Below, one piece after another: positions 339-12,221 of a stretch of DNA of 12,221 nt. Every line of letters begins with the position of its first letter. Position 1 is the first letter of the stretch. Source of the stretch: a virus. The translations under genes were made by a program, and so were the position numbers. The stretch lies in UHGV virus genome UHGV-0371394. The stretch is one strand, 5' to 3'. Under the pieces are notes generated by a model. The model saw only the letters and a list, made by a program, of their open reading frames with translations, was not told where the DNA came from and searched no databases.

Positions 339-401
339 GGATATTTATCAGGATTTATCGGTTTCTGCCCACGGACAGGTTTATCTGTTCCGGTCAGTGA
401 C

Positions 402-752
402 TTAAGGTTGTGATTCCGGAGGAGTCTTCAGAGAACCAGTAATTCTTCCTGGTAGCTTTCCTTTGTAGGTTATCCACACATTCTGCGCCTCTAAAATTAC
501 GGGGCGCTTTTCCGGCGACTGCTCATCCCCTTCACATAACCCGGCAGCAACATCCAGGAAGACCTGTCTGATGCTCCTTCTGGCTGCTGCCTCATAAAAC
601 CCCAGCGCGGCACCTTCAACACGGTCCAGCGAGATGTCCAGGTCAAAAATTTCACCGTCAAAGCGTTTTTTGTCCCGTAACGCTAAAGTTACCGTAACTT
701 TATTCTCAAAATTGCGGATCCCTTTCACAATCAGTTCATAGTTTTGAGTCAT
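402..752 (-). CDS. DUF1327 family phage protein (YdfR-like), lying between holin and endolysin
   Basis: 116-aa ORF with ATG at 752-750 and GGAG about 9 nt upstream; N-terminus MTQNYELIVKGIRNFENKVTVTLALRDKKRFDGEIFDLD resembles the Qin prophage YdfR family (recalled); position inside the lysis cassette. Confidence 0.7.
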   Translation of the reverse strand: MTQNYELIVKGIRNFENKVTVTLALRDKKRFDGEIFDLDISLDRVEGAALGFYEAAARRSIRQVFLDVAAGLCEGDEQSPEKRPVILEAQNVWITYKGKLPGRITGSLKTPPESQP

Positions 753-756
753 TGAA

Positions 757-972
757 TTACTCTCCCCGTGCAGCCTTACGACGGTCCTCTCTGATTTTGA
801 AATACAGGTTAGTCAGATATGTCAGGAAGCCCAGAACCAGACTCCCCAGTACACCAATCGCAGCCCACTGTGACGGACTGACCTGATCAAGCCACTGTAA
901 AAACCAGTAGCCAGCACTGCCTGCGGAGGTGCCGTAGGCAATGCCCGTTGAAATTTTATCCATGGATTTCAT
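757..972 (-). CDS. Class II holin / pinholin of phage 21 S type with dual-start motif (MKSMDK)
   Basis: ORF track 757-1071 contains [71 protein letters not shown]; ATG at 972-970 preceded by GGAGGTGAGG; second in-frame ATG at 963-961 gives the Met1-Lys2-x-Met4 antiholin/holin arrangement; two TM segments and a charged C-terminus. The 33 codons upstream in the track ORF have no SD and are taken as non-coding. Confidence 0.85.
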
Positions 973-1109
973 AGCCTCACCTCCGCAGCGAACGGATGGC
1001 GTAGTTATAAGGGGAGCGAAAAAGAAAGAATGCGCGATTGCGCAATATGGTAACGTCAGGGTATTATCCACTGGCTGAATAGATCACTTCACGTTTTTTG
1101 TTCCTTGCC

Positions 1110-1137
1110 GCCCGTATCCATATGCGGGCTTTTTTTT
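1110..1137 (+). terminator. Intrinsic terminator (plus strand): 8-bp stem gcccgtat/atgcgggc, 4-nt loop, then T8
   Basis: Hairpin 1110-1129 followed directly by tttttttt (1130-1137). Would stop antisense (plus-strand) transcription through the tRNA/Q region. Confidence 0.5.
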
Positions 1138-1143
1138 GCATGT

Positions 1144-1174
1144 AAAAAGGCCCCAACACATGTGCGTGGGGCCT
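1144..1174 (-). terminator. Intrinsic terminator (minus strand): GC-rich hairpin ggcccc...ggggcc followed by T5 on the minus strand
   Basis: Plus-strand aaaaaggccccaacacatgtgcgtggggcct; on the minus strand the hairpin is followed by TTTTT. Lies between the tRNA cluster and the holin gene, back to back with the plus-strand terminator. Confidence 0.5.
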
Positions 1175-1373
1175 GAGAGTATACATGGTTTCAGTCAACT
1201 GCATGGTGCCGGGTGCCTCCCGGTGAATTCAGTACCAGCACCTGAATCCGCGATTATCCCATATACCTACTCGCTGATTGCCCCTCCGCACAGGGGGATT
1301 CACCATGCCAGTTTCTTTTAACAAACTCCCCGCAAAACAGACAACTGTCAACCGTCTGAATTGTGAGACATTT

Positions 1374-1400
1374 AAAAAAAAGGCCCGCAAAAGCGAGCCG
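1374..1400 (-). terminator. Intrinsic terminator (minus strand) directly downstream of the tRNA cluster
   Basis: Minus-strand hairpin ggctcgc-tttt-gcgggcc (one mismatch) followed by T8 (plus A-run 1374-1381). Confidence 0.45.
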
Positions 1401-1413
1401 GGAAAAATAAGTC

Positions 1414-1490
1414 TGGCGCGTTGTACTGGATTCGAACCAGTGACCGATTGCTTAGAAGGCAATTGCTCTGTCCGGTTGAGCTAACAACGC
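1414..1490 (-). tRNA. tRNA-Arg (anticodon UCU, decodes AGA/AGG), phage-encoded
   Basis: Minus-strand 77-nt sequence GCGTTGT-TA-GCTC-AACCGGACA-GAGC-A-ATTGC-CTTCTAA-GCAAT-CGGTC-ACTGG-TTCGAAT-CCAGT-ACAACGC-G-CCA folds as a canonical cloverleaf: 7-bp acceptor, D loop with GG, TTCGAAT T-loop, encoded CCA. Confidence 0.85.
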
Positions 1491-1503
1491 AGGGTACAGA
1501 TAA

Positions 1504-1580
1504 TGGACCGCCATCGAGGACTCGAACCCCGCGCAACCAGCTTCGAAGGCTGGCGCTCTATCCTGATGAGCTAATGGCGG
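1504..1580 (-). tRNA. tRNA-Arg (anticodon UCG as read; decodes CGA/CGG), phage-encoded
   Basis: Minus-strand CCGCCAT-TA-GCTC-ATCAGGATA-GAGC-G-CCAGC-CTTCGAA-GCTGG-TTGCG-CGGGG-TTCGAGT-CCTCG-ATGGCGG-T-CCA. Acceptor stem perfect; T-stem has one G-U pair; 5' C is unusual, so boundaries and isotype should be confirmed with a tRNA finder. Confidence 0.7.
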
Positions 1581-1587
1581 TATGTGA

Positions 1588-1663
1588 TGGTGGCCCTTGC
1601 TGGATTTGAACCAGCGACCTGGCGATTATGAGTCGCTCGCTCTCACCACTGAGCTAAAGGGCC
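1588..1663 (-). tRNA. tRNA with CAU anticodon, most like tRNA-Ile2 (lysidine, decodes AUA; ileX/ileZ-like) rather than elongator Met
   Basis: Minus-strand 76-nt GGCCCTT-TA-GCTC-AGTGGTGA-GAGC-G-AGCGA-CTCATAA-TCGCC-AGGTC-GCTGG-TTCAAAT-CCAGC-AAGGGCC-A-CCA; the anticodon arm (GCGACTCATAATCGC) closely matches my recollection of E. coli ileX. Ile2 versus Met cannot be settled from the anticodon alone. Confidence 0.8.
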
Positions 1664-1703
1664 GGGAGCCGCATAATAACGACGCGTAATTAATTCTTCA
1701 ATA

Positions 1704-1982
1704 TCATCCGTTCTGGCTGACTAAATCCTGTACTTCCCGAACCGTCTGCTCAAAACGTTCAGTCTCCAGCTCAACGCCAATTGCACGACGCCCGAGCGCC
1801 AGTGCCGCTTTCACTGTCGAACCCGACCCCATGAAAAAATCTGCAATCAGGTCACCCGGACGACTGCTAGCGCTGATTATCTGCTGCAGCATTTCTGCCG
1901 GTTTTTCGCACGGATGTTTCCCGGGATAGAACTGCACCAGTTTATGCGTCCAGACATCGGTATACGGCACCTGCGCCGTCAC
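1704..1982 (-). pseudogene. 3' remnant of a DNA methyltransferase gene (N4/N6 MTase, C-terminal AdoMet-binding part only)
   Basis: 92-codon ORF starting at GTG, with HPCEKP and DLIADFFMGSGSTVKAALALGRRAIGVE (FxGxG AdoMet motif); the N-terminal catalytic (DPPY) half is missing because the tR'-like terminator and the Q gene lie immediately upstream. Confidence 0.55.
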
Positions 1983-2040
1983 GCCAAAATACCGCCGCAG
2001 TCGGCATTCACAACCACCAGCGCATTTAACGTTCAGCCAT

Positions 2041-2066
2041 AAAAAAACCCGCTCGCGGCGGGTTTA
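2041..2066 (-). terminator. Intrinsic terminator on the minus strand downstream of Q (tR'-like)
   Basis: Minus-strand hairpin aaacccgc-cgcga-gcgggttt (8-bp stem) followed by a T-run; about 70-90 nt downstream of the Q stop, as expected for the short pR' transcript ending at tR' in lambdoid phages. Confidence 0.6.
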
Positions 2067-2133
2067 AGCTGTGTGGCGAAGTAACCACTCTTAACATACT
2101 GACATACTTTTTGCGGACCGCACTAATCATTTT
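2067..2133 (-). promoter_or_regulatory. Putative late promoter pR' / Q-engagement region (between Q stop and terminator)
   Basis: Positional inference only: lambdoid late promoters sit immediately downstream of Q and upstream of tR'. Hexamers not confidently assigned. Confidence 0.3.
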
Positions 2134-2514
2134 TTACTTTTTTAGCAGCCAGTCGTCCATCTCCAGTCTTACCCCCAGCACAGACAAACATCCGTCAATA
2201 AACCCTTCGGCTATCTGCATCTCAATTCGTATTGCTTTTTCGCTTTTCTTTCTCGTCCTGGCTATCTGTCTTTTTGATATTCGCAACAAATAATGAGCAA
2301 TGAGAAGCGAATACTCCTCAGGTTTTTTCTGCTTCAGACGAGCAAGACAGTTTTCAATGATAAGTCCGTCATCATCGCAGCAGGCCGGACGTGGTTTAGT
2401 GGCAGATGGTAAAAGTCCTTTGAATCCGGCAGCGATCGGAGAATAGTCCACCCCGGTGTTACCACTTGCCGCCCATGCCCCCCAGCGTTCAAGAACCATC
2501 TGAATATCACGCAT
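2134..2514 (-). CDS. Q: Late antiterminator Q (phage 82 / QuuD-QuuQ type)
   Basis: ATG at 2514-2512 with GGAG 7 nt upstream (the track start at 2529 is a TTG); MRDIQMVLERWGAWAASGNTGVDYSPIAAGFKGLLPSATKPRPACCDDDGLIIENCLARLK... matches the 82-type Q family (recalled); followed by a terminator and the late/lysis genes. Confidence 0.8.
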   Translation of the reverse strand: MRDIQMVLERWGAWAASGNTGVDYSPIAAGFKGLLPSATKPRPACCDDDGLIIENCLARLKQKKPEEYSLLIAHYLLRISKRQIARTRKKSEKAIRIEMQIAEGFIDGCLSVLGVRLEMDDWLLKK

Positions 2515-2531
2515 CAACTTTCTCCACAAAA

Positions 2532-3527
2532 TCAGGACAGCACACCAATCGCCAGCGCGCGATCGATAAAACGAAATATCAGCTCCAGTTGGGAACCATA
2601 CTTCTCTTCAAATGCCACGGTATCCGCATGCAGCTCGTCGTGATGTTTTCTGCACAAAGGCAACACAAAGAGGTCATGCGCTTTTGTACCCATTCCCCCC
2701 TGACCGTGGCCTATCAGGTGGTGGGGATCATCAGCTGGCTTTCCACAACATGCACACGGCTGTGTCTTAACCCAGCGCGTGTACTTTTCATTAACCCAGC
2801 GGCGACGTTTTGGGCGTAACATAAAAGACTCCGGCGACTCCGGATCCACTTTCAGCGCCAGCACCTTTTTCGCTTTATCCTGGATAATGCTGGTGGCAGG
2901 AACCGAAGGAACAAGATCACTCTCCCGGGTGACAGACGGCACAACAGGCTTCGGTAATCTCAGTGCCTTACGGGCTGCACTTTCCGGTAAGGCATCCGCC
3001 AGGTCATTACGAATCAGCCACCAGCACAGTTCCGGCATTGTCACAACGTGACTGTCATCAAAACCGAGATCACGGCGCACAACAGATAACACCCAGCGGG
3101 CACAGTTATCCGTTGCCATTGATTCCAGCCGTTCCGTGAACTGGTCACGGAGAAGATTGTCACAGTGCCAGCACAGACGGATTGCGCCTGGCGCGTGCCG
3201 CATTGTGGTCATGTTCTCGCTGTGCCAGTCGGAATGAGGCCACTGACAGCCCTTTTCACGAAGTAACCAGCTCTCAAGGCATTCCACGCCACCAGCACGA
3301 CGGATCACCGCCTCATGGCGGAACACGGCCCGAACGGCAGGATCATCCGCCAGCGGTTGTGATGCTGCCGGAACGGCACCACTGGCAAAAGATGAATAAC
3401 GTTCCGGCTCAGGCTCCAGCAGGACACGCCCCTGCATAAACAGGGGCATCAGCTCTGAACCTGGCCTGAACAATACGATCCCCATACGCGGGGCAATTTC
3501 AGGGGTCAGTAGTGCTCTCACAGTCAC
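2532..3527 (-). CDS. DUF968-family protein (YdfU-like) with C-terminal HNH-like Cys/His motif
   Basis: 331-codon ORF; C-terminus CACCGKPADDPHHLIGHGQGGMGTKAHDLFVLPLCRKHHDELH resembles an HNH-type metal-binding nuclease motif. GTG start at 3527 (or 3521) directly after the upstream stop; position immediately upstream of Q as for ydfU in Qin. Confidence 0.75.
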   Translation of the reverse strand: MTVRALLTPEIAPRMGIVLFRPGSELMPLFMQGRVLLEPEPERYSSFASGAVPAASQPLADDPAVRAVFRHEAVIRRAGGVECLESWLLREKGCQWPHSDWHSENMTTMRHAPGAIRLCWHCDNLLRDQFTERLESMATDNCARWVLSVVRRDLGFDDSHVVTMPELCWWLIRNDLADALPESAARKALRLPKPVVPSVTRESDLVPSVPATSIIQDKAKKVLALKVDPESPESFMLRPKRRRWVNEKYTRWVKTQPCACCGKPADDPHHLIGHGQGGMGTKAHDLFVLPLCRKHHDELHADTVAFEEKYGSQLELIFRFIDRALAIGVLS

Positions 3528-3528
3528 C

Positions 3529-4326
3529 TCAATGAACGGTATCGAGCAGCTTTAACAGCTCAGGAAATCGGGATTCGAAGAAATGCGGCTGCGTCTCGCG
3601 CGGATTTGCAGGACTGGTGATGTTCTTGCCGAACATGCAGCCTTTCGCTGTCAGCGACCAGAATTTTTTGATGTTGTTAATCGCGGTACGGCTGTATCGT
3701 TCGCGTTGTTCAACGATCCCCAGCTTCGCCAGCTGGTGATATGCCTGATTAGCCGTCAGGCAGATACCATACTGTTTCAGCAGTGCACTCAGTGACAGTG
3801 TCAGGCGACTTGAGCCATCAGGCGCGTCAGCAGGAGCATCAATGGCATAGCGCGGTGCCAGATTCGGTAAGCCAACAGCCTCCTGAAGCTTCTGACAGGC
3901 TCCAAGCACTGATGAGTTAGACAGGTTTAATTCCCGGCGCATAAAGTCCAGCAGGATCACGCCAGCCTGCATCTTGTCAGCAGCCTGCCCGGATAATTTT
4001 TCCGGTGTGCTGGTTACCATATCGAAAGTACGGATCACCTTCAGATGGAATGACGGGCTGATCCACATTGCATAGGCATACACCAGTTCTTTGCAGACAT
4101 ACGTCCCCTGGTTATTTCCGCCACGAATAACGTTAACTGGCTCTATATTGACCGAGTTGCAAATCTGCAACTCGCTTATTAAACGTTCAGTTTGCTCATT
4201 GCGGAGCCAGAATGCAGGCTTATGCTTATCCAGAGAACCGGCAGCCCTGTGCAGATCGTTCAGGCTGTAACGCCCATAAGCATCACGACGAACTTCAATA
4301 CCATCAATGACCATCAGATTATTCAT
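3529..4326 (-). CDS. KilA-N domain protein (putative antirepressor-like DNA-binding protein)
   Basis: ATG at 4326 with strong SD AAGAGGAGA; N-terminus MNNLMVIDGIEVRRDAYGRYSLNDLHRAAG...KPAFWLRNEQTERLI fits the KilA-N fold signature (recalled). Confidence 0.7.
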   Translation of the reverse strand: MNNLMVIDGIEVRRDAYGRYSLNDLHRAAGSLDKHKPAFWLRNEQTERLISELQICNSVNIEPVNVIRGGNNQGTYVCKELVYAYAMWISPSFHLKVIRTFDMVTSTPEKLSGQAADKMQAGVILLDFMRRELNLSNSSVLGACQKLQEAVGLPNLAPRYAIDAPADAPDGSSRLTLSLSALLKQYGICLTANQAYHQLAKLGIVEQRERYSRTAINNIKKFWSLTAKGCMFGKNITSPANPRETQPHFFESRFPELLKLLDTVH

Positions 4327-4345
4327 ACTTCGTTTCTCCTCTTAA

Positions 4346-4735
4346 TCAGGCGGCTGCACCCGCCGTTTTCTCGTACTTACTGATAGTGATCTCGACCTTC
4401 CCTTCCGGGACAACCGGTCCCCACTCCACCAGCATTCTTTTCACCTGACTGTCGTCTTCCCACACACCCGCGTGGGTCAGGGCGTCAAACAGCGCCTTGT
4501 TATAGTTGTCCAGATCGCGGATCCGGTTATCCGGTGGAAACAACACGATCTCCACTGCAGCAGGTGCCGACGTTGGTTTCGGCAGACGACGTAACTGCTC
4601 AACTATTGCTGCGCACGCCGCGCTCTGGAATTTTCGCCCCGCCGCGCTTATCAGGCTCTTACCAGCAAACGCCCCTTTGTTGGGGTGTCGCCAGTACGTG
4701 TTGACGCTGGGCGGAAAAGGCAGAATAAGCTTCAT
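4346..4735 (-). CDS. rusA: Holliday-junction resolvase RusA
   Basis: 129 aa; MKLILPFPPSVNTYWRH...RDLDNYNKALFDALTHAGVWEDDSQV matches the RusA family motifs (recalled E. coli RusA: PWPPSNNRYYRH...[28 protein letters not shown]); ATGA start/stop overlap with the upstream gene. Confidence 0.85.
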   Translation of the reverse strand: MKLILPFPPSVNTYWRHPNKGAFAGKSLISAAGRKFQSAACAAIVEQLRRLPKPTSAPAAVEIVLFPPDNRIRDLDNYNKALFDALTHAGVWEDDSQVKRMLVEWGPVVPEGKVEITISKYEKTAGAAA

Positions 4736-5058
4736 ACTTTCAGGCCCCTCTCATGTAACCAGTGGGCTGCACGCAGCCTTGCGTTTTCCTCACCGGCAAG
4801 CAGTGAGCGGATAATCCCGACCGCCTCGCTGTCGTCGTCCTTCACCGCGGTATGAAGCGTGATCCCCCGGGCCACACCACGCTTTATCGTGATGACGCCT
4901 TTTTTCTCCAGTGCGCGAAGATGCTCCACCGCTGCATTCACCGAACGGTATCCCAGCATGGTTGCCACCTCCTGATTGGTTGGCGGGAAGCCACGTTCTT
5001 TCTGATAAGAAATCAGCATATCCAGCACCTGCTGCTGGCATTGAGTTAACGTCGTCAT
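4732..5058 (-). CDS. LexA N-terminal DNA-binding-domain protein (winged HTH only, no S24 peptidase domain)
   Basis: 108 aa; MTTLTQCQQQVLDMLISYQKERGFPPTNQEVATMLGYRSVNAAVEHLRALEKKGVITIKRGVARGI aligns position by position with E. coli LexA residues 1-70 ([66 protein letters not shown], recalled), including the recognition helix S-x-NAA-x-EHL. ATGA overlaps at both ends. Confidence 0.7.
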   Translation of the reverse strand: MTTLTQCQQQVLDMLISYQKERGFPPTNQEVATMLGYRSVNAAVEHLRALEKKGVITIKRGVARGITLHTAVKDDDSEAVGIIRSLLAGEENARLRAAHWLHERGLKV

Positions 5059-5708
5059 GCCGCCATCTCCCTGACCAGTTTTTCCGCCTGCTGGCGAACC
5101 TGCGCCAGAAACGCCTCACCACATGCCTCAAGTTCATCGCGCCCGATGTAGCTGATTGCCGGTCCCTTCCAGGTCTTGTCGAAAACAGCAATAGCACCAG
5201 CGAAGAAAGCGCCTGTCGGCACCTGCTTCTCATCCTTCGGGATAAACCAGGCAGGCAGTTCAAAACCAATACGCCCGCGAATAAAAGCAATATGGTCCGC
5301 ATCTTCCGGCCACCACACTTCGCTGGTGGCAGCTTTGATCAGGAAAACATAGCGCCCGCCCTTATCACGCATGGCACTGGCATGTTTCATGATGTAACGC
5401 ATGCCGGTGATGTATTGCCCCTCATGCTGACTGGCGCGGCTGTATGGGGGATTACCAAAGGCAGCACCTTTAAGCTCCGCAAGACGTTCTGACCAGTCAT
5501 GCGCCAGCGCGTTATCTTCCGCCGTGTAATACGCGGCACATTTGGCGTTATCACCGTCAGTAAACAGATCCAGAACAAACGGGCCAAACAGGGTGTTAAT
5601 TCCCCAGAAAATGTTGTCCGGCGTGCGCCACTGATCGCCCGCTTCCTTCAGTTCATGGGCTGGTTTGTTCCGCAGTTCCGCCAGCGCCTGGCAATATTTA
5701 TTACTCAT
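5055..5708 (-). CDS. Phage DNA N6-adenine methyltransferase (Dam-like)
   Basis: Contains FGNPPYS (N/DPPY catalytic motif). ATG at 5708 overlaps the upstream stop as TAATG; an alternative GTG at 5741 with SD AGGTGA would add 11 codons. Confidence 0.7.
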   Translation of the reverse strand: MSNKYCQALAELRNKPAHELKEAGDQWRTPDNIFWGINTLFGPFVLDLFTDGDNAKCAAYYTAEDNALAHDWSERLAELKGAAFGNPPYSRASQHEGQYITGMRYIMKHASAMRDKGGRYVFLIKAATSEVWWPEDADHIAFIRGRIGFELPAWFIPKDEKQVPTGAFFAGAIAVFDKTWKGPAISYIGRDELEACGEAFLAQVRQQAEKLVREMAA

Positions 5709-6202
5709 TAAGCCCCCACGTAATTCCCTGAGAGATACCACTCTTCACCTGATGCAGCCCGCTTACTGCTTTTCCGTAAACACCGTTCACGACGCGCCAG
5801 AAAATTGTTTCGTTCTGGCTGGGAGTGGCTTTCACGGAATGCCGCCATCCACACGGTTGCAGCACGACGGTATAAGCCCCTGGACTCCAGTTCTTCAGCC
5901 TGGCGGGTCAGGCACAAAATCACCCGTGGATCGTTAGTGCCGACATAGAAATTGCGCACAGGTCTGGTTTCTCGAACTGGTTGTGGTTCCGGCTCCTGCG
6001 ATATCTCAGCCTGGCGCGGGAAATGTCTGCGTGTATCCCCTTCACAACGGTGAGCCACACGCCCACTCTGACGTAACTTGCTTGCTGACTGCAGAACGCG
6101 CTGCCGTGAGTAACCTGCAAAAGCATCCGCAATGTCTCCGGAAGTACACCCCGGATGGGCTTCAATGAATTTCTGAACGTCATTTAACAGACTCATGATC
6201 AC
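5708..6202 (-). CDS. PerC-family-like transcriptional regulator (N-terminal wHTH-like region plus C-terminal PerC/Pch-like segment)
   Basis: C-terminal LESRGLYRRAATVWMAAFRESHSQPERNNFLARRERCL resembles the conserved core of PerC/Pch regulators (recalled, not searched). Start is either GTG 6202 (GTGA overlap) or ATG 6196. Confidence 0.5.
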   Translation of the reverse strand: MIMSLLNDVQKFIEAHPGCTSGDIADAFAGYSRQRVLQSASKLRQSGRVAHRCEGDTRRHFPRQAEISQEPEPQPVRETRPVRNFYVGTNDPRVILCLTRQAEELESRGLYRRAATVWMAAFRESHSQPERNNFLARRERCLRKSSKRAASGEEWYLSGNYVGA

Positions 6203-7140
6203 CCTCTGAATCCTGCCGGGATCTGGCTGTAGTCCACGTTGTCGTAACTGGCTTTGAAGTACGGGTCCTCGCGTTTTTCGGTGTACGTGCTGACGGACGG
6301 CGATAAGCGCAGGGAAAGCTCATCCCATTTTTCCCGCAGCTTCGACGGGCTGAGCACGTTACGGCACCAGAACGGATCGCGGCTGACGCGGCTGTACATC
6401 TCGCAGATTTGTTTGTGAGTACGCCCATCCTGTACACACATCAGGCGAATTTCGTTTGCCCAGGCTGTCCAGTTAGGTTCTTTGGGACGAACCACCTCGC
6501 CGTCACATTCGGCAGCCTGCTCGTACAGGGCGATGATTTTTTTCCAGAGCCACTGTGCGCAGGTCAAATCATCCTGCGTCCCCCACTGGCGCTTTTTAGG
6601 GCTGAATACAACCGCATCAGGATGGCGAGTTAAAAAATCCTGTTCAGCCGTCTGCGTGTCCGGTTGCGAAGCGTCCGGACGAGAAGGTTTTTTATCTGAC
6701 GGATCATGTTTTGATTTTACTGACGGATCCCCGCCAGATTCTGACGGGTGAAAACCCGCTTTTTTGCCAGATTTCGACGCATCAAATTTTGACGGGTCAG
6801 ATTTTGATGCGTCAGATTTTGACGGGTCAGAATCTGACAGTTGAGAAAATGCCGCTGTCTGAAGCTTCGCAACGTTAAGCTGATAAACATTCGACGCATT
6901 GCGGTTACCCTGGCGACGCGCCTTACGCGTTAACCAGCCTTCTGCTTCCAGCCGTGCGATAGCCGTTCTGACGGTACTCATCCCCGCGCCAATCTGACGG
7001 GCAATGGTTTCAATTGATGGCCAGCACACACCTTCGTCATTACTGAAATCAGCCAGGCGGGCCATAATTGCCACGCTGGATAACTTCATGCCTGATGCAG
7101 CGCAACCATCCCATACATAGCCGGTTAATTTAGTGCTCAT
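6199..7140 (-). CDS. Replication initiation protein (HTH-domain initiator, lambda O functional analogue) with low-complexity repeat linker
   Basis: ATG at 7140; N-terminal winged-helix region (SSVAIMARLADFSNDEGVCWPSIETIARQIGAGMSTVRTAIARLEAEGWLTRK) typical of phage/plasmid initiators; central S/D/K/P-rich repeats encoded by tandem 15-bp DNA repeats; position right after the cro/cII-like genes. Confidence 0.7.
   Translation of the reverse strand: MSTKLTGYVWDGCAASGMKLSSVAIMARLADFSNDEGVCWPSIETIARQIGAGMSTVRTAIARLEAEGWLTRKARRQGNRNASNVYQLNVAKLQTAAFSQLSDSDPSKSDASKSDPSKFDASKSGKKAGFHPSESGGDPSVKSKHDPSDKKPSRPDASQPDTQTAEQDFLTRHPDAVVFSPKKRQWGTQDDLTCAQWLWKKIIALYEQAAECDGEVVRPKEPNWTAWANEIRLMCVQDGRTHKQICEMYSRVSRDPFWCRNVLSPSKLREKWDELSLRLSPSVSTYTEKREDPYFKASYDNVDYSQIPAGFRG
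6692..6843. repeat. Iteron-like array: at least 8 imperfect direct repeats (consensus about ATTYTGACGGRTC), the last five exactly 15 bp apart
   Basis: Cores at 6698, 6722, 6743, 6776, 6791, 6806, 6821, 6836; all spacings are multiples of 3 and lie in the initiator-gene linker, as lambda ori iterons lie inside O. Confidence 0.5.
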
Positions 7141-7149
7141 GACCGACCT

Positions 7150-7488
7150 CTATTTCCCTGAATTTACGACGAAACTGTTCGAGCGGACTGAAGCATTCAT
7201 GCTCATAACCTTCGCGGAGGTAGATAACCCGTTGTGTTTCCGGCTCCCAACGAATGACTCTGACGGGCACTCCGTAGTGATCTTTGAACCAGCGGTTAAC
7301 TTGTCGCAAAGGACTGTCTCCTTCTGCCGGTTGAAATCACCCACAGCCCACTCTGCAAAGCTGTGGGTTACAATTTCCCTGTCACCTGGTACATTCACTG
7401 CATAGCAATATTCCACCTTCGCTTTTCCACCCGGTACAGGAAGCGCAATCAGTTGCGAGCGACGGTAGTGTGTTGTTAAACTGTTCAT
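7150..7488 (-). CDS. Hypothetical early protein; 3' part of this frame looks non-genuine (possible frameshift, see findings)
   Basis: ATG at 7488 overlapping the upstream stop (ATGA). The first roughly 65 codons are protein-like; the C-terminal 45 are S-rich low complexity, while an alternative frame (7130-7309) is protein-like and ends 9 nt inside the initiator gene. Confidence 0.4.
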
Positions 7489-8042
7489 GCGTTAGTTTCT
7501 CCACAACCAGAAGCAATCGACGCCACGACGCCCGGAGCTGCACACTCGCGGGCGTCATTACTTTCTGAAATGCAAAAAATTTTGTAGACAAGTGCTGCAT
7601 GCTCCTGCAGCTTCGAAATTGAGAGATACAGCTCGTCGTTAATTGCTGTCTTCTCATGCGGTTCCACTACACCGTCTTCGATTGCTGAACGAATCTGTTT
7701 TGAATAACTGCCGATCTGTTCAATGACTTCCAGCAGACGCTGGTTAATATCGGCGTTGTCCACATCCTCGACGTCAGGAAGAGACACAAAGACGCCATTT
7801 GCAGACTGCGCCACAGCATCAGCAATGAAGTGAGTGCCACCAGCACGCTGTAAAACCATTGCCCATCCCAGCGGGAAAATCTGATCGCCATCTGCACGAA
7901 GGCGGTTGAATAAAGCGTTTTCTGTTACATCGAGCCAGTCAGCCGCTTCAGCGTAACCACCCGGCAACGCCGCGATAGTTTTTCTGACAGCTTTCACGTA
8001 CCACTCAGGCTGTTTTTCTATTTTCCAGTGATGCTTACCCAC
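7485..8042 (-). CDS. Hypothetical early regulatory protein at the cII position (possibly CII-like / Phage_CP76-like)
   Basis: 185-codon ORF starting at GTG 8042 with strong SD AGGAGGT 6 nt upstream; immediately downstream of the cro-like gene. Family assignment is by position and weak recollection only. Confidence 0.45.
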
Positions 8043-8295
8043 GGCTTACCTCCTGTTCCTGTGGTTTTAACTCATTCCGGTTTTGACTAGATTGAAAGCG
8101 TGCAGGATAGAGAATCTGCATTTCGCTGATTTCTCCCTTAAAAAAATTGGCCAGACGCTCTGCAAGATCGATAGATGGAATTTGTTCCAGTCTCTCAATA
8201 CGACTCAGCGTTGCTGGATTAACCTGAACGCCCGCAGCAACATGCTGCAAAGTAAACCCGTGCGCCTTACGCACATTTCGTAATGGTGATTGCAT
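8035..8295 (-). CDS. Cro-like HTH (XRE-family) repressor, divergent from cI
   Basis: 86 aa; ATG 8295 with GGAGG SD; HTH segment RKAHGFTLQHVAAGVQVNPATLSRIE; divergently oriented to the CI repressor across an operator region. Confidence 0.75.
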   Translation of the reverse strand: MQSPLRNVRKAHGFTLQHVAAGVQVNPATLSRIERLEQIPSIDLAERLANFFKGEISEMQILYPARFQSSQNRNELKPQEQEVSRG

Positions 8296-8392
8296 ATAAC
8301 CTCCACATATTGCGTGATGAGCATATTATTTCACGCAAATATTTTGCGCAAGTTGATTTGCTTAACGCGCAATAAAGAAATGTAATAAACGC
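8296..8392. promoter_or_regulatory. OR region: divergent promoters (pR towards cro, pRM towards cI) with operator half-sites TTGCG/CGCAA
   Basis: Inverted repeat TTGCGTGA-N13-TCACGCAA (8310-8338), palindrome TTGCGCAA (8344-8351) and 15-bp site TTGCTTAACGCGCAA (8358-8372) sharing TTGC-N7-GCAA with the OL sites. Candidate pR on the minus strand: -35 TTGCGC, 17-nt spacer, -10 TAATAT. Candidate pRM: -35 TTGCTT, -10 GTAATA ending about 6 nt before the cI ATG. Confidence 0.6.
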
Positions 8393-9085
8393 ATGAACAT
8401 AGGAAATCGAGTCAGACAACTTCGCCAGGCGAAGAACATGAAAATCGCCGATCTCGCTGAAGCAATAGGAGTGGATGCGGCGAATATCTCACGCCTGGAA
8501 ACAGGTAAGCAGAAACAATTCACTGAACAAGCCCTGAGTAATATTGCCAGGAGCTTAGGTGTTGATATTGCTGATCTCTTTACCTCAGACTTCAAAAGTA
8601 ATACTGTATGTAAAAACAGTATTAGTGAGGATGTTGCGCAGGTGAAGGATGTATTCCGTATTGAAATGCTGGATGTCAGTGCCAGTGCGGGAAATGGCCT
8701 TATCCAGGGCGGTGATGTCATTGATGTGATTCATGCCATTGAATACAGAACTGATAATGCTGTATCGATGTTTGGCGGACGACCAGCCAATCACATTAAA
8801 GTTATCAACGTTCGTGGGGACAGTATGTGTCCAACCATTGAGCCAGGAGATCTCATCTTCGTTGATGTCAGTATCAATCAGTTTGATGGAGATGGTATCT
8901 ATGTATTTGGTTTTGATGATAAAATTTATGTCAAACGACTGCAAATGATACCTGACAAACTACTGGTGATTTCGGATAATCAGATTTACCGTGAATGGGG
9001 AATTACCAGCGAAAATGAACACCGGTTTATGGTCTTTGGAAAGGTCTTAATCAGCCAGTCACAAACCCTTAAGCGACACAATTAA
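8393..9085 (+). CDS. cI: CI-type phage repressor (N-terminal HTH_XRE, C-terminal S24 LexA-like autopeptidase domain)
   Basis: 230 aa; N-terminal HTH (MNIGNRVRQLRQAKNMKIADLAEAIGVDAANISRLETGKQ); C-terminal VRGDSMCPTIEPGDLIFVD...KIYVKRLQ with the Ser/Lys dyad context of S24 peptidases; flanked by the OR and OL operator sets. Confidence 0.9.
   Translation: MNIGNRVRQLRQAKNMKIADLAEAIGVDAANISRLETGKQKQFTEQALSNIARSLGVDIADLFTSDFKSNTVCKNSISEDVAQVKDVFRIEMLDVSASAGNGLIQGGDVIDVIHAIEYRTDNAVSMFGGRPANHIKVINVRGDSMCPTIEPGDLIFVDVSINQFDGDGIYVFGFDDKIYVKRLQMIPDKLLVISDNQIYREWGITSENEHRFMVFGKVLISQSQTLKRHN
8602..8621. promoter_or_regulatory. LexA (SOS) box-like palindrome TACTGTATGTAAAAACAGTA inside the cI coding sequence
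   Basis: Matches CTGT-N8-ACAG with flanking TA on both sides; 17/20 identical to the E. coli SOS-box consensus TACTGTATATATATACAGTA; lies in the cI interdomain linker codons (TVCKNSI). Confidence 0.5.
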
Positions 9086-9105
9086 CCCTTACCTCCTCAT
9101 CAATT

Positions 9106-9127
9106 AGCCACCCGAAGGTGGCTTTTC
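9106..9127 (+). terminator. Intrinsic terminator downstream of cI
   Basis: Hairpin agccacc-cgaa-ggtggct followed by TTTT, 20 nt after the cI stop. Confidence 0.55.
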
Positions 9128-9140
9128 ACTACCCATTAAA

Positions 9141-9195
9141 TTGCATATCTCGCAACAAAACACTTGCATAATGCGCAAATTCATTTTATCTTTCT
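9141..9195 (+). promoter_or_regulatory. OL operators and putative pL (plus-strand early-left promoter)
   Basis: Two 15-bp sites TTGCATATCTCGCAA (9141-9155) and TTGCATAATGCGCAA (9164-9178), 8 bp apart, same TTGC-N7-GCAA architecture as the OR site; candidate pL -35 TTGCAT (9164-9169) and -10 TATCTT (9187-9192). Confidence 0.55.
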
Positions 9196-9603
9196 TTCCA
9201 GACAAACAAACAAGGTACTAACAAAATTTGGTTGTAACACGGCGTATGGCACATGCGTCGTTAGCGGTCTGGGGACGTTAAAGGGGACAATCCACTCCTT
9301 GCTCGGGCAAACAAACCAGGTAGCCGGAATGTGCAAGTCAATGATGATGCTGATAAGACGCCTAACCAGCGTGGCGATTCGGTTTGACGCCTGGGAAGAG
9401 ACCAGGGTGCAACGATGAGGGCATTTATGGAACCGCGACAAAGTGTGGTGCCGTAACTGGCTAAGTGCTCTCAGCGTTGTGGTAATCCGCGAAATGGCGC
9501 GGCGGTAAGTATGGCGGGGTTACTCTTTCCCCGTTGAGGACACCGGATTGTCAGGTTGACCATACGCCTGAGTGACAACCCCACCACAACAGCCACTGCT
9601 TTG

Positions 9604-9650
9604 GCGGTACCAGTTTGTACACTTGCTTCCGGCTGGTACCGCTCTTTTTA
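9604..9650 (+). terminator. Terminator-like hairpin in the pL leader (10-bp stem gcggtaccag/ctggtaccgc, long loop, then TCTTTTTA)
   Basis: Perfect 10-bp inverted repeat 9604-9613 / 9633-9642 followed by a T-rich tract; the 3' side CGCTCTTTTTA also resembles a boxA-like element. Confidence 0.4.
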
Positions 9651-9786
9651 CAAAACAGAGAAGAGCATCACCGGACGACGGGCTCATAACCCAATCCATC
9701 CGGGCGGCTGCCACCGCAGGTGTTCTTCTCTGTTTTGTGGAGAAACCAACCGACCTTGCAGGGTCGATATGATGAGGAGCAGCAAA

Positions 9787-10149
9787 ATGGCTAGCGAACG
9801 CAGTACTGATGTGCAGGCATTTATCGGGGAGCTGGACGGCGGCGTATTTGAAACCAAAATCGGCGCAGTTCTCAGTGAAGTCGCTTCCGGTGTGATGAAC
9901 ACGAAAACCAAAGGTAAGGTCTCACTCAACCTGGAAATCGAACCATTTGATGAGAACCGTGTGAAAATCAAACACAAACTCTCATATGTTCGCCCGACTA
10001 ACCGCGGGAAAATTTCCGAAGAAGACACCACCGAAACGCCGATGTATGTCAATCGCGGTGGTCGCCTGACTATTCTGCAGGAAGACCAGGGACAATTACT
10101 GACTCTTGCCGGTGAACCTGACGGAAAACTACGCGCAGTAGGTCATTAA
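9787..10149 (+). CDS. yfdP: YfdP-like hypothetical protein (first gene of the pL operon)
   Basis: ATG 9787 preceded by GAGGAG at 8-nt spacing; 120 aa; assigned by size and synteny with the following yfdQ/yfdR-like genes (CPS-53 order yfdP-Q-R-S-T, recalled). The track ORF 9556-10149 has a Cys-rich, non-protein-like N-terminal extension that I do not accept. Confidence 0.6.
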   Translation: MASERSTDVQAFIGELDGGVFETKIGAVLSEVASGVMNTKTKGKVSLNLEIEPFDENRVKIKHKLSYVRPTNRGKISEEDTTETPMYVNRGGRLTILQEDQGQLLTLAGEPDGKLRAVGH

Positions 10150-10214
10150 TATCGTTCTTAATTAACTGATTATTTATCTCATCACTGAATATCTTTATAT
10201 AGTGAGGACTTATT

Positions 10215-11039
10215 ATGTCTCAGAACTTAGACGCAACCGCAATTAATCAAATCCATGCCCTTATTTCTGCTCAGGGTGTTAATGAAATTATCAGTAAGAT
10301 TGGTGCCGATGCTGTGGCATTGCCTGAGAATTTCCGCATTCATGATCTGGAAAAATTTAATTTAAATCGCTTCCGTTTCCGTGGTGCGCTTTCCACTGCC
10401 AGCATCGATGACTTTACCCGTTATTCTAAAGATCTTGCAGATGAAGGCACCCGCTGCTTTATCGATGCTGATAATATGCGTGCCGTCAGTGTGCTTAACC
10501 TGGGTACTATTGATGAACCAGGTCACGCAGATAACACCGCCACTCTCAAACTGAAAAAGACAGCACCGTTCTCTGCTCTGTTGTCTGTTAATGGCGAGCG
10601 TAACTCCCAGAAGTCACTGGCAGAATGGATTGAAGACTGGGCCGACTACCTTGTAGGCTTTGATGCTAATGGTGACGCTATTCAGGCAACAAAAGCGGCT
10701 GCAGCTGTCCGTAAAATCACGATTGAAGCAAACCAGACCGCTGATTTTGAAGATAATGACTTCAGCGGCAAACGCTCCCTGATGGAGTCTGTCGAGGCGA
10801 AAACCAAAGATATTATGCCAGTGGCATTTGAATTTAAATGCGTTCCGTTTGAAGGTCTGAAAGAACGTCCGTTTAAATTACGCCTCAGCATTATCACTGG
10901 CGATCGTCCTGTACTGGTTCTGCGCATTATTCAGTTGGAAGCAGTCCAGGAAGAAATGGCTAACGAATTTCGTGATCTGCTTGTTGAGAAATTCAAAGAC
11001 AGCAAAGTAGAAACCTTTATTGGTACTTTCACCGCCTGA
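10215..11039 (+). CDS. yfdQ: YfdQ-like protein (DUF2303 family), function unknown
   Basis: 274 aa, the length I recall for E. coli CPS-53 YfdQ; SD GAGGA upstream of ATG 10215; followed by an HD-domain YfdR-like gene. Confidence 0.7.
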
Positions 11040-11051
11040 TTTCATTACTGC

Positions 11052-11074
11052 AAATGCCCCTGCGGGGGCATTTA
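11052..11074 (+). other. Stable GC-rich hairpin (aaatgcccc-tgcg-ggggcattt) between yfdQ-like and yfdR-like genes; possible attenuator or processing site
   Basis: 9-bp stem, 4-nt loop; only a short U-tract follows, so not a strong intrinsic terminator. Confidence 0.3.
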
Positions 11075-11166
11075 TGGAAACGTAATTAACTCAATAATCG
11101 CCGGATGGTAAGGGCTTCTTTTTACCAAAATTCAGTGCGGTGCAGCGCATATACGTGGAGAACAAA

Positions 11167-11703
11167 ATGTCATTTATTAAAACTTTTTCCGGGAAGCATT
11201 TTTATTATGACAAGATAAATAAAGACGACATCGTTATTAACGATATCGCGGTTTCCCTTTCAAATATCTGTCGCTTTGCAGGGCATCTTTCACACTTCTA
11301 CAGCGTCGCCCAACATGCGGTGCTTTGCAGCCAGCTGGTACCGCAGGAATTTGCTTTTGAAGCGTTAATGCATGATGCAACAGAAGCATATTGCCAGGAC
11401 ATCCCCGCACCACTGAAACGACTTCTTCCTGACTATAAACGGATGGAAGAAAAAATAGACGCCGTAATCCGTGAGAAATACGGGTTACCCCCAGTTATGA
11501 GTACGCCCGTGAAATATGCCGATCTCATCATGCTGGCAACCGAACGCCGCGATCTCGGGCTTGATGATGGCTCTTTCTGGCCTGTACTGGAAGGTATCCC
11601 GGCAACAGAGATGTTCAAAGTGATTCCACTGTCGCCAGGCCATGCCTACGGGATGTTTATGGAACGTTTTAACGAGTTATCGGAGTTACGCAAATGCGCA
11701 TGA
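11167..11703 (+). CDS. yfdR: HD-domain phosphohydrolase, YfdR-like 5'-deoxynucleotidase
   Basis: 178 aa from ATG 11167 (GGAG upstream); HD signature H...HD (FAGHLSHFYSVAQHAVL ... ALMHDATEAY); size and position match CPS-53 YfdR (recalled). Confidence 0.75.
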   Translation: MSFIKTFSGKHFYYDKINKDDIVINDIAVSLSNICRFAGHLSHFYSVAQHAVLCSQLVPQEFAFEALMHDATEAYCQDIPAPLKRLLPDYKRMEEKIDAVIREKYGLPPVMSTPVKYADLIMLATERRDLGLDDGSFWPVLEGIPATEMFKVIPLSPGHAYGMFMERFNELSELRKCA

Positions 11704-12044
11704 ATGTTTTCGAAATGGAAGGGTTTCTTCGCGGGAAATGTGTACCACGAGATCTGAAAGTGAATGAAACAAATGCTGAGTATCTGGTGCGTAAATTCGA
11801 TGAAGTACGTGCTGAGGCTCGCAACGAGGGTATTAACTATACCGCAAGCCGTCTTGCTGCGGCTTTCAATCACGGATTTATCAATAAGTCTTTACGTGAA
11901 GTTTTCGACGTTACACGCATGATTCTGTCAGCGAAAGAAGAGTTGGCTAATGAACCACACCCGATTGATGGCCTGTCCGGTGAATATGCGGAGAAATCCC
12001 TAGAAGAATGGGCGGAACAGATTCGCAAAGGAGGCAACCAGTGA
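11694..12044 (+). CDS. yfdS: YfdS-like hypothetical protein
   Basis: 116-aa ORF with GGAG 8 nt upstream of ATG 11694; overlaps the yfdR-like stop (an alternative ATG at 11700 forms an ATGA overlap); assigned by synteny. Confidence 0.6.
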   Translation: MRMNVFEMEGFLRGKCVPRDLKVNETNAEYLVRKFDEVRAEARNEGINYTASRLAAAFNHGFINKSLREVFDVTRMILSAKEELANEPHPIDGLSGEYAEKSLEEWAEQIRKGGNQ

Positions 12045-12221
12045 GCAAGATTGACTATCAAGAACTGCGCGAGGCGGCGGAACAGGCAACGCAAGATGAA
12101 TGGGTAGCATATATTTTGCCGGGTCATAACGGCATTTATCCTGCGCGCACGTCTGAGGGTAGGCATTGCGGATACTTTATTGACTGGCCTGGCGTCTGTC
12201 AGGGGCGGGAGAGCATCAGCA
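12041..12221 (+). CDS. yfdT: YfdT-like hypothetical protein, 5' portion (runs off window end)
   Basis: GTG at 12041 overlapping the upstream TGA (GTGA) with strong SD AAAGGAGG 6 nt upstream; open frame VSKIDYQELREAAEQATQDEWVAYILPGHNGIYPARTSEGRHCGYFIDWPGVCQGRESIS to the window end; assigned by synteny. Confidence 0.5.
   Translation, partial: MSKIDYQELREAAEQATQDEWVAYILPGHNGIYPARTSEGRHCGYFIDWPGVCQGRESIS

Follow-up and report, generated by a model that had tools for sequence, protein, structure and literature searches.

The genes analysed here have their closest described relatives in yfdP-yfdQ-yfdR-yfdS-yfdT of the CPS-53 (KpLE1) prophage of Escherichia coli K-12. Noguchi and Katayama (2016) isolated yfdQRST for its suppression of over-initiation in multicopy, and suppression in K-12 needed yfdQ and yfdR together with either yfdS or yfdT (PMC4776307). 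In that study of the CPS-53 proteins, multicopy yfdQRS or yfdQRT inhibited initiation at oriC in vivo, extracts with YfdQRST inhibited it in vitro, and YfdR bound DnaA domain I in a Phe46-dependent manner, with moderate competition with DiaA and DnaB (PMC4776307). Genes of the yfbR/yfdQ/yfdP type turn up quite often in the early-left operons of lambdoid phages according to a 2025 Genome Research paper on Chi-rich phages (PMC12315714), and a K-12 regulon paper gives 'yfdPQ' as an operon (PMC9181523). We analysed the 12,221-nt virus genome UHGV-0371394 (this whole stretch is henceforth referred to as the window), in which five plus-strand genes have starts within positions 9787-12221. A sequence-only reading had taken these genes for a conserved yfdP-to-yfdT-like module of essentially unknown function that makes up the entire early operon next to the leftward promoter pL. 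We find that the evolutionary unit is bicistronic yfdP-yfdQ, flanked by a structured leader on its 5' side and by a hairpin on its 3' side and usually with yfdR attached, and that the rest is mosaic. With the DnaA binding and oriC inhibition already published and the cluster described, the functions are also less obscure than had been claimed.

The window and CPS-53 share gene order and strand, and the products of the first three genes are 98-99% identical to their K-12 counterparts. yfdP (9787-10149, plus strand) encodes 120 aa that match phrog_204 (4e-49) and are 98.3% identical to K-12 YfdP. Its membership of the PF27127 family follows from this identity and from its place directly upstream of yfdQ; the PF27127 assignment itself was precomputed for the cluster of this protein, as our local Pfam copy does not include that model. 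YfdQ (10215-11039, plus strand; 274 aa, 99.3% identical to K-12 YfdQ) is a DUF2303 protein that matches PF10065 over profile positions 2-269 of 269 (E 2e-92; 309.7 bits, cut-off 26.6). yfdR (11167-11703, plus strand) encodes a putative 178-aa HD-domain phosphohydrolase (98.3% identical to K-12 YfdR; phrog_318, 4e-110; PDB 2gz4, 2e-13) whose translation shows the H..HD..D metal-binding residues (AQH, MHD, YAD). YfdQ and YfdR had been rightly identified from the sequence, and the yfdP-to-yfdR part of the claimed likeness stands, but its extension to yfdS and yfdT does not. Gene 4 (11694-12044, plus strand) is chimeric by blastp and PHROG comparison: only residues 1-42 of its product align with K-12 YfdS (blastp, 88%), the rest of YfdS is lacking, and residues 36-116 match phrog_614 and phrog_368, the latter of which is also matched by gene 5. 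The gene 4 product had no match to any Pfam family. Gene 5 (12041-12221, plus strand) has a GTG start, is cut by the window end and is Ead/Ea22-like. To read what follows the window end we used an annotated prophage of E. coli CMZE063 (locus L001) that is 99.7% identical to the window. Against PF13935 (cut-off 27), the 60-aa fragment of gene 5 scores 48.5 bits (1.8e-12) and the full 226-aa protein of L001 scores 97.3 bits (1.5e-27); blastp of the full product gave no match to YfdT at E 1e-3. Unlike CPS-53, the window thus has Ead/Ea22-type modules in place of the C-terminal part of YfdS (DUF551 according to PMC4776307 and PMC10834534) and of YfdT. CPS-53, for its part, retains neither the immunity region nor the structured leader, both of which it has lost, and the ori-type iterons of yfdO abut yfdP there. 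Because this leader (leader D below) is present in intact prophages but lost from K-12, the K-12 work cannot have seen the natural regulation of the unit.

We assessed the co-occurrence of the genes in 80 loci that surround YfdQ relatives (YfdQ identity 41-99%), each species being represented once, and located the partners by tblastn. yfdP was directly upstream of yfdQ in 78 out of 79 testable species loci, down to 41% YfdQ identity, and this adjacency extends to Marinobacter, Hahella, Photobacterium, Kistimonas and Pontibacterium. yfdR was downstream on the same strand in 56 out of 77 loci (adjacent in 51) and was lacking from all non-Enterobacterales loci of the sample. The YfdS N-terminus, YfdT and the window's fifth gene were essentially found in Escherichia only. 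Of 80 viral contigs of E. coli whose YfdQ is identical, 61 carry the YfdS N-terminus, 45 carry YfdT and 4 carry the fifth gene of the window. Independent distribution is therefore what we observe for genes 4 and 5, partly also for yfdR, and not for yfdP-yfdQ, and a conserved module of five genes is contradicted by these counts. The YfdQ family itself is of moderate size: out of 1.84 billion cluster representatives, 1,467 belong to it at E up to 1e-3.

The spacing of the genes is uneven. yfdP and yfdQ are 65 nt apart and yfdQ and yfdR 127 nt, whereas yfdR overlaps gene 4 by 10 nt and gene 4 overlaps gene 5 by 4 nt. The description of the genes as tightly linked is thus only partly apt. Between yfdQ and yfdR there is a strong GC hairpin (11052-11074, plus strand; -17.3 kcal/mol), which may be a weak terminator or stabiliser. 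A hairpin of different sequence is found at the equivalent place in all 11 other genera checked, and the hairpin marks yfdPQ as a bicistronic unit. Together, the yfdP-yfdQ adjacency, the conserved hairpin after yfdQ and the operon given for K-12 in PMC9181523 identify the unit as yfdP-yfdQ, usually with yfdR. It is this unit, and not yfdPQRST, that should guide which genes are studied jointly. The five genes are not the entire operon either. The window stops inside gene 5, and seven further annotated features follow on the same strand in L001: a second remnant of the Ead/Ea22 type (a pseudogene), a gene for a hypothetical protein, DUF551, DUF4222, one more hypothetical gene and finally xis and int. 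The junction of genes 4 and 5, GGAGGCAACCAGTGA, combines a Shine-Dalgarno sequence, the GTG start and a TGA stop. The junction cassette GGAGGCAAYCAGTGA (KGGNQ-stop/GTG), at window positions 12030-12044, recurs one gene later at 17622-17636 of L001. Repeated at successive Ead/Ea22-type boundaries, the cassette is likely a mosaic recombination joint, and a mosaic boundary at this junction accounts for the chimeric gene 4.

We give about an even chance to a reading in which YfdR and its partners take over host replication and the YfdP-YfdQ pair is an accessory of DNA replication or recombination. Loss of the cI-like repressor would allow transcription from a repressor-controlled promoter near 9200, and the transcript would cross a structured leader of ~590 nt, including a terminator-like hairpin, before YfdP, YfdQ and YfdR are made. 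YfdR would bind domain I of the host DnaA at Phe46 in competition with DiaA and DnaB, and together with YfdQ and one downstream gene it would block new rounds of initiation at oriC. In the live phage, host initiation may in this way be shut down and the host helicase freed for phage replication. YfdP-YfdQ would be a separate, older two-protein device that probably acts on DNA replication or recombination intermediates. Initiator binding that prevents productive DnaA-DnaB or DnaA-DiaA contacts, as proposed for YfdR, has parallels in lambda P (DnaA domain III) and in Bacillus subtilis SirA, Dps and DiaA competition (domain I) (PMC4776307). The likeness is one of working mode and not of family, as the HD-domain YfdR has no sequence or fold relation to lambda P, SirA or Dps.

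For the pair, part of the evidence comes from its neighbours. In distant relatives, yfdPQ is preceded by RecT and a YqaJ exonuclease that carries a fused T7 gp5.9-like RecBCD-inhibitor domain, by YqaJ alone or by Sipho_Gp157, and it is followed by SSB or an Rv2179c-like 3'-5' exonuclease. With these neighbours, yfdPQ stands among DNA-transaction genes. Deletion of yfdQ leads to sensitivity to methyl methanesulfonate (MMS) and H2O2, as stated in PMC4776307 with reference to Rooney 2009 and Wang 2010. The PDB entry 9o7m ('YfdQ Protein') holds 36 chains of one 274-residue sequence that matches YfdQ of the window with E 1e-44; these identical chains suggest that YfdQ is probably a large homo-oligomer. 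We found no paper that describes this entry, and a Foldseek search of PDB entries to April 2026 did not return it.

The same observations bear on an alternative in which YfdP-YfdQ is an annealase-like or mediator oligomer on single-stranded DNA or recombination intermediates and replaces the missing Red/Erf module in a Rec-less prophage. L001 has no recognisable Rec module from yfdR to xis, the pair lies between RecT/YqaJ and SSB in distant relatives, the yfdQ deletion is MMS-sensitive, and 36 chains suggest a large oligomer as in annealases. In addition, the 12.2 kb window contains seven Chi octamers (GCTGGTGG) against ~0.4 expected at random, two on the plus strand and five on the minus strand (at 2014, 2889, 3018, 3289, 4426, 5322 and 7837). 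This density agrees with the Chi-rich lambdoid class that lacks a Rec module and relies on RecBCD (PMC12315714). We nevertheless consider the alternative unlikely: yfbR/yfdQ/yfdP-type genes are not limited to Rec-less phages, so the authors of that study think hidden recombinases unlikely (PMC12315714).

The sequence-only reading had suggested nucleotide-pool manipulation or counter-defence as the function of the operon. In the first of these, YfdR would dephosphorylate deoxynucleoside monophosphates (dNMPs) and so reshape the pools for phage DNA synthesis. PGAP and PHROGs do label YfdR a 5'-deoxynucleotidase, its HD motif is intact, and with its H..HD..D residues it would belong to the HD phosphohydrolase fold family, like the E. 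coli 5'-deoxynucleotidase YfbR. However, its matches to Pfam YfbR-like (2.8e-5), Pfam HD_3 and NCBIfam PRK03826 are all under the curated cut-offs; the YfbR models give 24.3 bits for PF12917, where 25.9 would be required, and 19.9 bits for NF003009, where the cut-off is 122. The statement in PMC4776307 that cites Zimmerman 2008 puts the nucleotide affinities of YfdR far below those of YfbR and calls its function elusive. Dephosphorylation of dNMPs would, moreover, drain precursors that a replicating phage needs, and we regard this explanation as very unlikely.

Counter-defence or superinfection exclusion would have YfdP, YfdQ and YfdR neutralise a host anti-phage system, for example through hydrolysis of a nucleotide signal by the HD domain, or exclude other phages. 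The genes do lie in the early-left accessory region, which is the usual site of such genes in lambdoid phages, and the module is extremely widespread, being present at least in part in 4832 out of 5426 complete E. coli genomes; the intact phosphohydrolase motif of YfdR would fit as well. Against this, PADLOC had no match for the module, neither PADLOC nor NCBIfam placed YfdP, YfdQ, the YfdS-like product or gene 5 in a family, and there was no informative fold match and no similarity to any solved anti-defence protein. None of the listed titles and abstracts on DUF2303, yfdQ or yfdR in the searched literature is on anti-defence. The yfdP-yfdQ pair is also fixed beside recombination and SSB genes across orders, unlike fast-turnover anti-defence cargo. 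This makes a counter-defence function quite unlikely.

Several points weigh against host-replication takeover combined with a DNA-transaction accessory, the reading we prefer. The effects on DnaA were seen only on multicopy expression, deletion of yfdQRST gave no phenotype in initiation, and an artefact of overexpression is a possibility that the authors themselves raise (PMC4776307). K-12 also required YfdS or YfdT, neither of which is conserved here, gene 4 sharing just 42 residues with YfdS. As YfdR is missing from about one quarter of yfdPQ loci, including all those outside the Enterobacterales, DnaA targeting cannot be the core function of the yfdPQ pair. No fold or profile match assigns YfdP or YfdQ a biochemical activity. 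Judging from the sequence, immediate-early expression is unproven, since a terminator-like hairpin precedes yfdP and no N-like antiterminator was found, and cleavage of the leader by RNase III is suggested by analogy only. As a gene finding, the locus carries little weight: the proteins are those of K-12, the cluster has been described, DnaA binding has been published and a YfdQ structure has been deposited. The gene module is already known and ordinary, and the structured leader is the only part that might repay more work.

This leader lies downstream of a lambdoid immunity region that had been correctly recognised, as had the position of the genes on the cI side, downstream of repressor-operator-like sites. 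The cI-like repressor (8393-9085, plus strand) combines a helix-turn-helix domain and an S24 peptidase (Pfam HTH_3, 1e-10; Peptidase_S24, 6.5e-19; phrog_4, transcriptional repressor), and divergent cro-like and cII-like genes lie on its other side. It is followed by a terminator-like hairpin with a T-run (9106-9127, plus strand; AGCCACC-CGAA-GGTGGCT then TTTC; minimum free energy (MFE) -11.8 kcal/mol). The 15-bp sequence TTGC-N7-GCAA occurs in four exact copies in the window against 0.42 expected. One is at 8358 in the cI-cro spacer, where there is also a site with one mismatch at 8310, and two are just past the cI terminator hairpin at 9141-9155 and 9164-9178; the fourth, inside a tRNA gene, was set aside as a chance match. 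The two sites past cI form a candidate OL/pL (9141-9192, plus strand), with a -35 hexamer TTGCAT at 9164 that overlaps the second operator-like site, a 17-nt spacer and a -10 hexamer TATCTT at 9187. The hexamers were read from the sequence and are only moderate matches. From this arrangement we infer a repressor-controlled pL with a start near 9200.

yfdP is not adjacent to this candidate promoter. The two are separated by ~590 nt of presumably non-coding, structured sequence and by a terminator-like hairpin (9603-9649, plus strand; MFE -21.2 kcal/mol), which has 13 bp in the MFE fold (9603-9643) and a U-run at 9645-9649. A GC hairpin with a T-run is found ahead of the leader in most genera. 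A longer version of the 9603-9649 hairpin, with the inner motif GAAGATAATGTTCTG, occurs in many genera. The first gene after the candidate pL is yfdP and not an N-type antiterminator gene with its nut site, as in a lambda-type pL operon. The open reading frames (ORFs) between cI and yfdP had no Pfam match and PHROG matches only to families of unknown function, and we found no N-like antiterminator among them. These phages thus lack an N gene at the head of the operon but have a terminator-like hairpin ahead of its first gene.

We refer to the structured RNA directly before yfdP as leader D (9645-9786, plus strand; it abuts the yfdP AUG). Its P1 stem of ~25 bp (9645-9669 with 9719-9743) encloses a P2 hairpin (9671-9703), which has an anticodon-loop-like loop CUCAUAA (9680-9692), and a variable P3 hairpin (9704-9717). 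A short GC hairpin, P4 (9751-9766), is followed by the Shine-Dalgarno sequence and the yfdP AUG. Leader D contains GGAGAAAC, which pairs back to the U-run of the terminator-like hairpin, and its conserved GUGGAGAAAC base-pairs onto this U-run. We dropped the idea that the P2 loop pairs with the yfdP ribosome-binding site, since most genera have no more than 4 complementary nt. For leader D, the MFE has a z-score of -5.1. At 9634-9706, nucleotide identity across genera is 80-93%, above the protein identity of 55-62%. Stop-free frames are common on both strands, which makes a coding test uninformative; the core lengths (among them 96, 97, 99, 102 and 103 nt) vary by non-multiples of three, and substitutions compensate within pairs and do not look codon-like.

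We built a covariance model of leader D from 20 main-class sequences and realigned the other classes to it. The main-class alignment has 40 pairs, 11 of them compensatory, at -44 kcal/mol, whereas RNAalifold found only 9 pairs when all leader classes were aligned with MAFFT, as the arms are too divergent for sequence alignment. The model matches the plus strand right before the yfdP start at 31 loci with E<1e-35 and in ~25 further genera with E 1e-16 to 1e-3. Scores are 125-160 bits on the plus strand against 30-40 bits on the minus strand. For 15 sequences from genera outside the training set, whose alignment was fitted to the model and so favours the structure, 92.6% of cells pair, compared with 73.6% after shuffling and 33-61% with slid partners. 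In these sequences 25 out of 40 pairs change on both sides, and 16 out of 22 P1 pairs co-vary. Across genera, 94.5% of the cells in the P1 helix of the model (22 pairs) are paired, and G-U pairs are frequent there. The effect size and the G-U asymmetry argue that P1 is a real RNA helix. A search of Rfam 15 with positions 9080-9800, which cover leader D and the element B described below, gave no match with an E-value <1.

Leader D is not specific to yfdP. It is found upstream of yfdP in lambdoid phages with the yfdR/yfdQ/yfdP-type trio, and in another lambdoid contig (L206 9209-10293) it stands (95 bits) directly before a full-length rdgC whose product is 66% identical to the host RdgC. A version with a wholly different P1 stem sequence and the same P2 loop is found in the ban operon of phages P7/P1. 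In P7 (L003 1625-1769; P2 loop ACGGGTTCATATCCCAATC) it sits between tRNA genes and is followed by a Shine-Dalgarno sequence and an unannotated ATG. PGAP annotates an 'RdgC pseudogene' at window positions 9623-9772. We rejected it, as tblastn of the host RdgC against the window gave only noise at E up to 10 and the peptide finds no RdgC-annotated phage gene.

A second structured RNA module, element B (9226-9420, plus strand; counterparts at L003 3001-3184 and L004 3001-3245), would come first in the pL transcript. The non-coding trnI-ban spacer of P7/P1 and DNA adjoining tRNA-Arg in phiV10 are ~80% identical to it. An 18-mer of element B occurs in >120 viral contigs, with 89 distinct cores, and RNAalifold gave 34 pairs, 9 of them with compensatory changes, which two hairpins show clearly. 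Elements B and D share a strand in contigs of the lambdoid and P1-like kinds. We tentatively propose, with less than an even chance of being right, that the ~590 nt are a composite RNA control region. Here element B and leader D, two previously undescribed modules with a terminator-like hairpin between them, would control early-left expression through the RNA, whether by processing, by attenuation or by antitermination that does not need N. The two modules would be common to the P1/P7 ban operon and to lambdoid prophages without N from many Enterobacterales, with D preceding whichever gene comes first (yfdP here, rdgC in L206).

Leader D can be compared with the RNase III hairpin of the lambda N leader and with HK022 put, as a long structured element between pL and the ribosome-binding site of the first gene, here in a phage that lacks an N gene at that place. 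The HK022 put RNAs are two short stem-loops. Leader D, in contrast, is a three-way junction with a ~25 bp stem; blastn (word size 7) for similarity to HK022 put gave chance matches only. The stem of leader D is near-perfect double-stranded RNA of at least ~20 bp on the transcribed strand, as an RNase III-type hairpin would be. By analogy with the lambda N leader and its RNase III site, P1 may most simply be a processing and translation-control hairpin for the first gene. Attenuation or N-independent antitermination would be the alternatives.

The wider context identifies the window as a lambdoid prophage of E. coli of the SfV/ST64B/mEp460/LLS type. The trio of yfdR/yfdQ/yfdP-type genes is likewise on the repressor side in SfV (orf29-32), ST64B (gp35-37), LLS (gp37-39), phiNP, mEp460, cdtI and Stx2c phages, which differ from one another in the downstream mosaic genes and in the segments between cI and the leader. 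The region is found in 263 phage records, including Stx2 phages, mEp460, cdtI, 2H10 and SfV. The lambdoid rightward operon runs on the minus strand from ~400 to 8300. It includes the cro-like gene (8035-8295), the cII/YmfL-like gene (7485-8042), replication genes, a methyltransferase, RusA, KilA-N, DUF968 and the Q antiterminator. Everything to the right of the cI-like repressor on the plus strand is thus the 'left' side of the phage map, and 9787-12221 is the promoter-proximal start of the leftward early operon. On the minus strand, the Q antiterminator is followed downstream by three tRNA genes (1414-1663; Arg-tct, Arg-tcg and a CAT-anticodon gene of the Met/Ile type) and a match to the small RNA family STnc100 (1138-1337; 140 bits).

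Three smaller observations concern the interval between cI and yfdP. A minus-strand ORF at 9520-9714 matches the C-terminal half of PHROG 3651 (function unknown) with E 5e-38. It is probably a repeated mis-annotation of an antisense ORF over conserved leader DNA; less probably, it may be the remnant of a real antisense gene. A short recurring module, AGTGCTCT(T/C)..CGTTGTGGT.AAT.CGG, with a boxA-like TGCTCTT core, is present at 9461-9505 of the window and at ~1470-1500 and 2045-2085 of L003, and also in Buttiauxella loci. The module with this core is thus placed in the leader of the window, in the P7 ban operon and in Buttiauxella. In the Erwinia typographi and Proteus terrae loci (L046, L061), tRNA T-arm-like sequences (GGTTCAAATCC, GGGTTCGAATCCC) lie ~200 nt upstream of yfdP, which suggests that RNA genes in general may land in the spacer of the yfdP leader.

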